DNA of 7,415 nt from a virus. Lineage: Monodnaviria > Loebvirae > Hofneiviricota > Faserviricetes > Tubulavirales. Shown here piece after piece: positions 1 to 2,001 of the stretch (its first letter is position 1; each line of letters opens with the position of its first letter). The DNA is taken from the IMG/VR virus record IMGVR_UViG_2648501390_000001; one strand, given 5' to 3'. The position numbers and the translations under genes are program-made. The notes beneath the pieces were generated by a model. The model was not told the DNA's origin. It did not search any database and saw nothing but the letters and a program-made list of their open reading frames with translations.

Positions 1-2001
1 GTGACTGAATCAGCCATCCTTACAGCGTATAACGCCATCGACGCGGCATCCGTTGCCCTTGGTCGTCCCTGCCTGACGCTGCCCGAACGCGAGCATTTTC
101 GGACTGAGCGCGATGTTGCCACCCGCAACCTTGCCACGCTTTCCCGCCAGTATCGTGATGAGGTCGGGACCTTATCTGCACAGCTCGCATTGCCACGTAA
201 CACGCAGGTTGACCGTGTGATTTACGGAATTAACTGCACGGATTTTTCACTCGCTGACAGGGGCAGGGGTGCCGGACTGGTATCACAGTTTGGCTCGTTT
301 TCGTTCACCGTGGCGCATGCTTTCTGCCGTCTGGTTTACCAGCTCGGTGTGAAAAATGCGCTGATGGCGCTTGAGTCCGCGCACCGTTTTGCTTTCTTCA
401 ATCAGGACGGAGACCCTTATGAATTCTCGCTTTTCTGCACTGATGAGCAGATTGCTGAGGTGGCTGATTCGGTTGTTCGTGACTGCCTTGTTTCTCGGGC
501 CATTTATAGTGATGTACCAGAGCATCACCTTCTCAATGTGATGGCCTATTTTCAGGCCATCTCCGGCTTTGATTTCGCCCCCGTTTATGCCACTTATCAT
601 GAGCGTTACGGCGATGAGGGATTGCTTAAGCGTCTGACTGATTTGGCTTTTGTCACCCGTTTCCTGCGGGTTATCCGTGACCAGCGGGTCAATGAGGTCT
701 GTCGCATGCTCGGCATACTGAACCGCAACGCGCCTTATATTTCTGACTGGCATCGTGACCTGTTTGCTGTCCGCAGTAAACGCGTGAAAAAGTATCTCCG
801 GTCCTCCGGTGTCTTTGATGCGTTTAATGAGCTGGTCTGTACGCTGGAAGATGCGCATAACGCCTCTGTTTCGAATCCGAAAAACCGGATTGCTGAACTC
901 TGCGTTCGTGGAAAGGCCGTCTGTGAACTGTCCGAAGATATGGGGCTGTCCGGCTACTTCATCGTGCTCACCACGCCGTCACGTTTTCACCCGACGACCA
1001 GTTTTAAGGTTGCCGGAAAATGGCATTCTCGTCCGAATAAAAAATGGTGGGAAGCAGGTTGCCCGACCGTTAAGGATTCGCACGCCTGGCTGAATACCGT
1101 CTGGCGTCGGGTCTGCCGCAGACTGGATAAAGCCGGTATTCAGATACCCGGCCTGCGCACGGTCGAGCCTCATGCTGACGGTACAACGCACTGGAATTTC
1201 CTGATTTACTGCAACCCCCATGAGAGCGCAACGGTGCTGGCCATTTTCCGTGAAGAGGCCATGCGCGATGAGCCGGATGAAAAGGGGGCGAAAGAGCACC
1301 GTATTCGTATTGAGGCTATTGACCCTGAAAAGGGTGATGGTTTCCGTTACATCGTGAAGTACATCACCAAAATGGCGGGTGATGTCAGTGCGGATGGTAT
1401 TACCGCCCTGAATGACCGTTATTCTGCCCGTTCATTCTGTGATGCCGTCAGCCGTGCCGCCTGCTGGCAGAAAGCAACGCGCCTTCGCCTGTTCCAGTTC
1501 TTTGGCGTTCCCTCCGTTACGGCTTACCGCCAGATGCGCAGCTTCCGCGCACCGCTTGAGGCGCATCATATCAATATGCAGCAGTTCACGCCGCAGCAGG
1601 TCGCCGAACTGGAAGCCATCCGCATGGCCTGTGATGCAGGCGATTTCCGGACCTATATCCTGCTGAACGGCGGTTTCTTCTGTTCTGAACGTCTGCTTCG
1701 TCCGTTTTACGTTCAGCCGCAGGAAGGTGGTAAACCCCGTTTTAACCGTTACGGTGAACCCTGCGCACCAGTGATTTCCGGTTTCATGTTTGGCCCCGTT
1801 CCGGTCATAACCCGTTTTATGGGCTGTGTTGTCCGCCGTATGACCCCCGCAGAAAAAATCCGCGCAGAGGAAGTCAGAAGCGGCAGCAGCTATGAATCTG
1901 TGTTTATTTCGTCGGCTTCACGACACCGCACGACGCGCTCCCGCGCGGCGGGTGGGGGCGGCGAAGCCGACCCTTGGACTTGTGACAATAACTGTCCCTG
2001 A
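1..2001 (+). CDS. Rolling-circle replication initiator (gII position), 666 aa, with a phiX174 gpA-like catalytic core
   Basis: Uninterrupted 2001-nt frame beginning with GTG at nt 1; the true start could lie upstream of the window. Candidate RCR motifs: YFIVLTTP at aa 319 (nt 955..978), [13 protein letters not shown] at aa 391-403 (nt 1171..1209), and YIVKYITK at aa 450-457 (nt 1348..1371), a Y-x-x-K-Y-x-x-K double-tyrosine motif like the phiX174 A protein active site as I recall it. First gene of an inovirus-order cluster. Confidence 0.8.

Follow-up and report, generated by a model that had tools for sequence, protein, structure and literature searches.

What kind of initiator replicates a filamentous phage whose genome opens with a gene for a 666-residue protein? 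This question is raised by the IMG/VR virus record IMGVR_UViG_2648501390_000001 (Tubulavirales), a stretch of 7,415 nt analyzed here as a whole and referred to as the window. All of its genes lie on the plus strand in a filamentous-phage order: a 666-aa open reading frame (ORF), a 141-aa ORF, several small ORFs, a Gly/Ser-rich pIII-like gene (Phage_Coat_A), a pVI-like gene, a Zot/pI ATPase gene and a secretin gene. The initial annotation, made from the sequence without database searches, had described the product of the first ORF (here named rep; 1-2001, + strand) as a rolling-circle replication initiator of the phiX174 gpA type rather than the Ff gII type, and the ORF and the three motifs on which this rested were all found at exactly the positions given. 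At the superfamily level the assignment was right. Sequence comparison very probably makes Rep a two-tyrosine endonuclease of the HUH superfamily, belonging to the Phage_GPA family and nearest to gpA of phage P2 and to the Reps of fs2-type inoviruses, and the predicted initiator of an inovirus prophage integrated at dif.

Membership in the Phage_GPA / P2 gpA family is supported by the ORF itself and by Pfam, PHROG and BLASTP searches. The start codon of rep is a GTG at position 1, the same start called in two E. coli genomes by the Prokaryotic Genome Annotation Pipeline (PGAP), whose product name for this Rep type is 'replication endonuclease'; a Shine-Dalgarno sequence, GGGGGA, lies ~4 nt 5' of the GTG, as seen in a copy from a tandem array. 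The Pfam model Phage_GPA (PF05840) matches aa 206-457 with E=5.9e-49 and 167.3 bits, compared with a curated gathering cutoff of 31.4 bits. The same model also recovers P2 A (E=1.8e-124) and phiX174 A (E=6.3e-62), the latter being the prototype of the family according to a review (PMC5714925). Moreover, aa 124-666 are matched with E=6.6e-129 by PHROG 91, a family annotated 'nicking at origin of replication'. In BLASTP, P2 gpA aligned over aa 153-558 (~400 aa) with E=8e-37 and with motifs 1-3 in register, whereas phiX174 A gave a marginal E=0.069 with the tyrosine motif alone aligned. The profile search thus placed Rep in a rolling-circle initiator family, with motif spacing that aligns to known members. 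The resemblance to phiX174 noted initially reflects a shared Pfam family; judged by these alignments, P2 gpA, not phiX174 A, is the closest characterized relative. Homology within the P2 gpA-type subgroup extends beyond the catalytic core in the PHROG 91 match, the P2 alignment and the tblastn search described below. A search of NCBIfam returned nothing for Rep or for the product of the 141-aa ORF (orf141).

When deposited phages were searched with tblastn, the same Rep type was found at 29-33% identity in Vibrio phages fs2 (genus Saetivirus), VFJ and Vaf1, in Shewanella phage Dolos and in some pre-CTX records; corticovirus PM2 (P12) and phages HP1/HP2 also matched. Both fs2 and Dolos share the rep-first layout of the window. 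These matches are in line with the published clustering of Reps, in which those of Myoviridae, Corticoviridae and Inoviridae fall in one HUH cluster and inovirus Reps are spread over five (Kazlauskas et al. 2019, PMC6668415). Rep is therefore an ordinary member of a known initiator family, of a type already known in inoviruses. When 80 related loci were queried by tblastn with Zot and with structural proteins of P2 to sort them by type, 68 remained unassigned. Besides these relatives, a diverged inovirus was observed in E. coli A34 (locus L005, 5033-15617), which has a 773-aa Rep and an IS110-family transposase instead of dif integration, and whose DNA identity to the window is limited to ~80 nt around the predicted origin of replication (ori). 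In addition, 'RstA-like' proteins in DQ288668, KP972568 and NC_073748 (pre-CTX records and one CTXphi RS2 record) match gpA-type Rep with E~1e-51, and therefore some CTX-related elements carry a gpA-family initiator under the RstA name.

The three motifs were then compared residue by residue with the family. Motif 1 (YFIVLTTP, aa 319-326; 955-978, +) aligns with P2 MFITLTAP, and in the overlapping pair FIVLTTPS/FITLTAPS the residues T324, P326 and S327 are invariant. Motif 3 (YIVKYITK, aa 450-457; 1348-1371, +) lies opposite P2 YIAKYISK and contains K457 and the predicted catalytic tyrosine pair Y450/Y454, which corresponds to Y450/Y454 of P2. Motif 2, the predicted metal-binding motif (1165-1209, +), is the place where Rep departs from its relatives. 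The His-containing segment pointed out initially as phiX174 A-like (aa 391-403) does align unambiguously with the family, but it is not a canonical HUH motif: it reads H397-W-N399, in a HUN form. A homolog search delineated a clade distinct from the P2-prophage type; its 650-720-aa Reps, at 41-98% identity, come from E. coli, Salmonella, Morganella, Providencia and Xenorhabdus. Motif 2 is EPHxDGxxHWN in all 32 aligned members of this Enterobacterales inovirus clade and EPHHDGTPHWH in all 22 relatives outside it, so that the clade has lost both His392 and His399 of the P2-type motif, with N399 in the place of the second His. E389, H391, D393, H397, Y450, Y454 and K457 are invariant in 54/54 relatives. 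Because the change is fixed in the clade while the other catalytic residues are perfectly conserved, we infer that HUN is a working variant in which Asn399 would replace the second His in metal binding. In such a fixed HUH-to-HUN change, nature has in effect run an experiment on how HUH nucleases coordinate metal.

Where would such an enzyme cut? The nick site of P2 is annotated at 29892, inside gene A. A P2 40-mer around this nick had a lone outlier match in the window at 1957-1996 (28/40); the next best match in the window was 23/40, and the maximum in 200 shuffles was 24. The corresponding element, a family-wide nick motif CTTGGACTTGTGACAATAACTGT, occupies 1973-1997 within the last 30 bases of rep. 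By homology with the mapped P2 nick, CTTGGACTTGTGACAATAACTGTCC (1973-1997, +) is the predicted plus-strand origin nick motif, and the cut is predicted after G1976 (CTTG^G). The window 29-mer at 1969-1997 recurs at or beside the 3' end of rep in the A34 inovirus (28/29), Dolos (25/29), fs2 (23/29), PM2 (21/29) and P2 (20/29). In Dolos, the motif begins at the rep stop codon and extends into intergenic DNA, outside the ORF. Over the family loci, the consensus is cCTTGGACTtGTGTcAATAACTGTAC.

A survey of 75 loci (one genome per species, 1.14 Mb) with a relaxed 21-nt pattern gave 68 matches, all of them on the rep strand and all between -900 and +300 nt from the rep stop; none was found on the other strand or elsewhere in the 1.14 Mb surveyed. 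Of these matches, 34 lie in the ORF (in two frames), 24 across the stop and 10 downstream. Because they fall in two frames, across stops or outside the ORF, the motif is a DNA-level element and not a coding constraint. The peptide PW(T/S)xxNNC recurs in otherwise unalignable Rep C-termini, which is explained if the disordered tail of Rep is largely the translated origin.

The nick motif is directly preceded by a GC-rich hairpin (1955-1973, +; -8.1 kcal/mol as DNA), a candidate specificity or binding element that, we infer, may act as the specificity determinant. P2 also has a GC hairpin 5' of its nick. Across the loci, the 32 nt 5' of the motif fold better than control segments (minimum free energy, -4.8 vs -2.3 kcal/mol; p=3e-13), with a mean z of -1.5 against their own shuffles. 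The stem sequences are unrelated from locus to locus, and it is the presence of a hairpin at that place that is common in the family. PM2 deserves separate mention: its annotated cleavage, AAGCTTG^CAGAGTTCACAATAAAT, is at record position 2253/2254 (locus L006, 1525/1526), and its best motif match, CTTGGAGCACTGAAAATAACTGTAAC, is at record position ~3508 (L006, 2780-2805), 1.25 kb further into gene XII. The annotated PM2 site also reads CTTG^...CAATAA. No statement of a family-wide gpA origin was found in the papers searched, a literature search for the motif sequence gave nothing, and an Rfam search of the window gave nothing. A paper on an in-frame Rep of pIGRK was set aside as irrelevant, the pIGRK protein not being HUH.

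By homology with P2 gpA and phiX174 A, replication may proceed as follows. Rep would bind the double-stranded replicative form at an origin located in the last ~45 nt of rep and made up of the 1955-1973 hairpin and, after it, the conserved motif CTTG^GACTTGTGACAATAACTGT. It would cut the coding (viral) strand after about G1976 and become linked to the 5' phosphate via Y450 or Y454, leaving a free 3'-OH from which host enzymes would prime leading-strand synthesis. After one round, the second tyrosine would cut the regenerated site, and the first would ligate the displaced strand into a circle. In elements of the myovirus, corticovirus and inovirus types alike, the predicted origin appears to be common to all of the gpA family, and it is precise enough to be testable.

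The regions flanking the motifs, 318 residues before motif 1 and 209 after K457, had been regarded initially as lacking any function assignable from sequence. Much of them is in fact covered by the family matches of Pfam (aa 206-457), PHROG 91 (aa 124-666) and P2 (aa 153-558); clade specificity is seen in the first ~120 aa, and the last 38 are predicted to be disordered. An AlphaFold2 model of Rep built from a 54-sequence alignment reached a mean predicted local distance difference test score (pLDDT) of 88.6 and a predicted TM-score of 0.86, with residues 1-628 forming a single confident fold. In the model, a helical N-terminal half is followed by a mixed alpha/beta core and more strands up to ~residue 613. 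Three parts can be distinguished along the gene. The helical N-terminal region (aa 1-123; 1-369, +) is conserved within the Enterobacterales inovirus clade only and lies outside the Pfam, PHROG and P2 alignments; the family-conserved body (aa 124-628; 370-1884, +) corresponds to the PHROG 91 match and shares one confident predicted fold with the N-terminus; and the predicted disordered tail (aa 629-666; 1885-1998, +) has pLDDT<50, its last 10 codons translating the ori element. Compared with predicted viral structures, the model is closest to the Rep of a Vibrio filamentous phage (E=2.8e-19 over 558 columns), and microvirus initiators match the model on a core of ~180-230 residues only. According to the model, the family fold includes as integral parts the 318 residues that precede motif 1 and the bulk of the 209 that follow the tyrosines.

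The suggestion of an internal start yielding a gX-like C-terminal product found no support. Only two internal Met residues are conserved in the clade, M458 (97%) and M614 (78%). M458 abuts the catalytic motif, and no Shine-Dalgarno sequence precedes it in the five lineages checked; a gX- or A*-like start within rep is thus not supported by the sequences. Rep also contains antisense ORFs at 283-858 (-; 191 aa) and 979-1299 (-; 106 aa). Neither these nor the alternative-frame ORFs within rep gave family matches, and the long antisense ORFs probably just reflect the high GC content of the coding strand.

We further examined the element that carries rep. The morphogenesis genes were identified by Pfam (Zot, E=3.1e-9; Phage_Coat_A, E=1.1e-8; Secretin, E=9.8e-25) as well as by PHROG matches, and the inovirus morphogenesis module in the window has the same order as in fs2. 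The window matches E. coli chromosomes adjoining hipBA. A dif site (attachment site attR; 7326-7353, +) with 1 mismatch to E. coli dif lies near its end, and the bases after dif are host chromosome. The identical Rep protein occurs in GCA_001265265.1, and the window runs from the rep start of that copy to a point 60 nt beyond its dif. Strain 700481 carries the element as a tandem array with a unit of 7,897 bp (rep to secretin plus a regulatory region), and the junctions between copies have the hybrid dif-like phage attachment site (attP) AGTGCGCATAATGTGACACGCGTTATGTTGAAAA instead of dif. The identical Rep is also encoded on a contig of 8,007 bp whose ends share a 30-nt repeat, which corresponds to a 7,977-bp circle bearing attP. 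Because of the dif/attR site, the tandem array and the attP-bearing circle, the element is, on sequence grounds, a XerCD/dif-integrated inovirus prophage of E. coli of ~7.9 kb.

Several side observations were made in this neighborhood. Upstream of window position 1, in ~0.5 kb outside the window, there are (at locus L002, 7666-8000 and 15563-15897) a divergent minus-strand ORF of 62 aa and repeated TTGCACAATTGCAC / TTGTGCA motifs, which together look like a repressor gene with its operators. In E. coli E300010, a second and unrelated initiator gene (398 aa; 'replication initiation factor domain-containing protein'; locus L001, 5000-6196) lies with small flanking ORFs between hipA and the gpA-type prophage, and probably represents another dif-associated filamentous element or a satellite. 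The pIII-like gene (3075-4358) contains a GGGSS/GGGNS repeat tract at ~3680-3900, and its annotated length of 1158, 1233 or 1266 nt, depending on the strain, suggests that the number of repeats is polymorphic.

The composition of the window bears on whether its replication module was acquired separately. As the initial annotation had stated, rep is far more GC-rich than the morphogenesis genes: its GC content is 54.8% (57.7% at third codon positions) vs 46.2% for 2002-7272, with individual genes at 33.3%-50.1%, and the drop is sharp at ~nt 2000, at the predicted ori. Elsewhere, rep and its background are much closer, with 46.4% vs 44.5% for the whole genome in fs2, 44.8% vs 45.3% in the A34 inovirus, 48.3% vs 46.5% in a Salmonella clade member and 39.2% vs 39.6% in Xenorhabdus. 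The excess is therefore real and lineage-specific, and not generic to this Rep type. The GC content of rep is like that of enterobacterial P2-type genes (53.2% for P2 gene A, 56.1% for a Salmonella P2-like rep). Of 5426 complete E. coli genomes, 40 contain rep and 42 the remainder of the phage. A match of the whole window in 1237 genomes was rejected as a sign of a widespread morphogenesis module, being only dif and the host flank (tail, 7326-7415).

In ~10 genomes, rep and the first ~446 nt downstream, which contain orf141, are at least 99% identical while the morphogenesis genes are unmatched, and a recurrent recombination break among E. coli copies lies at ~2447-2450, at the 3' end of orf141. 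Judged from these breaks, rep and orf141 behave as an exchangeable recombination module in E. coli. The gene that moves with rep, orf141 (2032-2457, +), is in the position of the single-stranded DNA (ssDNA)-binding protein gene (gV). Its product has a weak match to Pfam G5P (E=0.075) and is 53% identical to its counterpart in the A34 inovirus; no similarity to the ssDNA-binding proteins of fs2 and Dolos was seen. Position and the weak G5P match suggest that it may be the ssDNA-binding partner. Inovirus rep modules are known to be readily exchanged (Kazlauskas et al. 2019, PMC6668415). Together with the lineage-specific GC contrast and the near-identical rep-orf141 module, this makes the proposal that the replication module was acquired separately plausible, although composition alone is no proof.

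One conceivable route for such exchange involves the origin itself. P2-type prophages and these inoviruses, when in one cell, might cross-initiate or cross-terminate, giving hybrid replicons joined exactly at ori; specificity would then be set, as in plasmids of the pT181 family, by the hairpin upstream, which varies. The inovirus clade would here work with its remodelled HUN metal site. The nick motif is 25/27 identical to that of a Salmonella P2-like prophage (locus L079, 9267-9295), and, if true, ori-joined hybrids would explain the GC break at ~nt 2000 and provide a mechanism for the promiscuity of inovirus rep modules. We nevertheless consider the idea unlikely. Because the recent breaks in E. 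coli are at ~2447-2450 and not at ori, ori-mediated exchange is speculative.

Other explanations concern the identity and the ownership of rep. Its occupation of the gene II position of an inovirus would suit an initiator of the Ff gII type (Phage_CRI) or the CTXphi RstA type (Rep_trans) with coincidental motifs. Profile searches refute both identities: neither family gave a Pfam match to Rep at E<=0.1, M13 gII gave a best BLASTP E=0.55, and the Phage_GPA matches are strong, so that this alternative has almost no chance of being correct. A P2-like GC content and a second, unrelated rep gene nearby in one genome might suggest that rep belongs to another element, such as a P2-like remnant or a satellite, and merely sits beside an inovirus morphogenesis cluster. 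This is very improbable, given that tandem repetition and closure into the 7,977-bp circle involve the entire unit (rep through secretin, plus the regulatory region), that a rep-first layout is also seen in fs2, VFJ and Dolos, which are isolated phages, and that P2 structural genes do not flank the element.

The assignment of Rep as the initiator of the prophage is retained, and several points weigh against it. The hairpin statistic is partly confounded by GC content (58.5% upstream of the motif vs 50.7%), the nick position is predicted from a single GenBank annotation, that of P2, and the annotated cleavage site of PM2 is away from its best motif match. With the second His changed to Asn and His392 lost, the predicted metal site is unlike that of characterized members; nicking activity of Rep and its clade is assumed by analogy; and no solved structure is related to Rep by sequence, nor significantly by fold. 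The PM2 discrepancy also bears on whether 1973-1997 is an origin at all. Alternative roles would be those of a terminator, of a packaging signal or of a site regulating the downstream gene, or the element could be the trace of a protein constraint; the true plus-strand origin would then be intergenic as in Ff, for which the M13 gene II annotation is an example, and ~0.5 kb of regulatory/intergenic region does lie outside the window. We regard this as quite unlikely: in P2 the motif falls right on the annotated nick (29892), its occurrence in two frames, across stops and outside the ORF excludes a protein constraint, and its strict strand specificity and strict linkage to rep hold across elements of the myovirus, corticovirus and inovirus types, whose downstream genes are unrelated. 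The altered metal site, for its part, might mean that Rep is catalytically impaired and that the prophage is defective or domesticated, kept only through chromosomal replication, and the rarity of the gene in complete E. coli genomes (40/5426) would fit. This is less likely still than an origin elsewhere. N399 is fixed in 32/32 members at 41-98% identity with the other catalytic residues invariant and the ORFs intact, a pattern that argues for purifying selection on a working variant, and the identical tandem copies and the circular contig with attP suggest recent activity. Moreover, the HUQ-type Reps of circovirus and nanovirus are functional. A functional Rep acting at the 3' end of its own gene thus remains the preferred reading.

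Current views are not overturned by these results, as both the exchange of rep modules among inoviruses and the presence of this Rep type in them have been published. What is added is a predicted origin at the 3' end of rep throughout the family and the HUH-to-HUN change fixed in the enterobacterial clade. For the little-studied dif-integrated filamentous prophages of E. coli and Salmonella, the annotation can also be fixed: the initiator is of the P2 gpA type, not of the Ff or CTX type.

A comparison with known systems places the element among them. Gene II protein of the Ff phages (M13/f1/fd) shares with Rep the genome position and the plus-strand nicking role, predicted for Rep by analogy, but has no detectable sequence similarity to it, uses an intergenic origin and gives rise to gX from an internal start. 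CUS-1/YpfPhi, dif-integrating inoviruses of E. coli and Yersinia, and CTXphi resemble the window element in XerCD/dif integration, tandem arrays and a small divergent regulator upstream of rep, but are described with a module of the RstR/RstA type and thus an initiator of a different family (PMC4266046). The A protein of phiX174 shares the Pfam family, the YxxKYxxK signature, an origin inside gene A and, by analogy, the catalytic scheme; its origin lies near the 5' third of the gene and has no match to the family nick pattern, and it has the internal product A*. Closer are the fs2-type inoviruses (fs2 orf716, VFJ orf698, Vaf1 and Dolos), with the same family, rep-first layout and nick motif at the rep 3' end and Reps of 698-716 aa, although identity is ~29-33%, the canonical HWH is kept, the next ssDNA-binding gene is unrelated to orf141 and the hosts are Vibrio and Shewanella. 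P2 itself is a tailed double-stranded DNA phage, whereas the window element is a filamentous ssDNA phage. P2 A is reported to act preferentially in cis. Its gpA differs from Rep in length (761 vs 666 aa), in having ~140 residues after the ori codons where in Rep the ori forms the last 10 codons, in reading HHDGTPHWH instead of HADGTTHWN, and in an unrelated stretch of the first ~120-150 residues. Nevertheless, the two are homologous over ~400 residues, with motifs 1-3 and both tyrosines (Y450/Y454) aligned, and they share a homologous nick motif in the 3' part of their own gene on the coding strand and a GC hairpin 5' of it.

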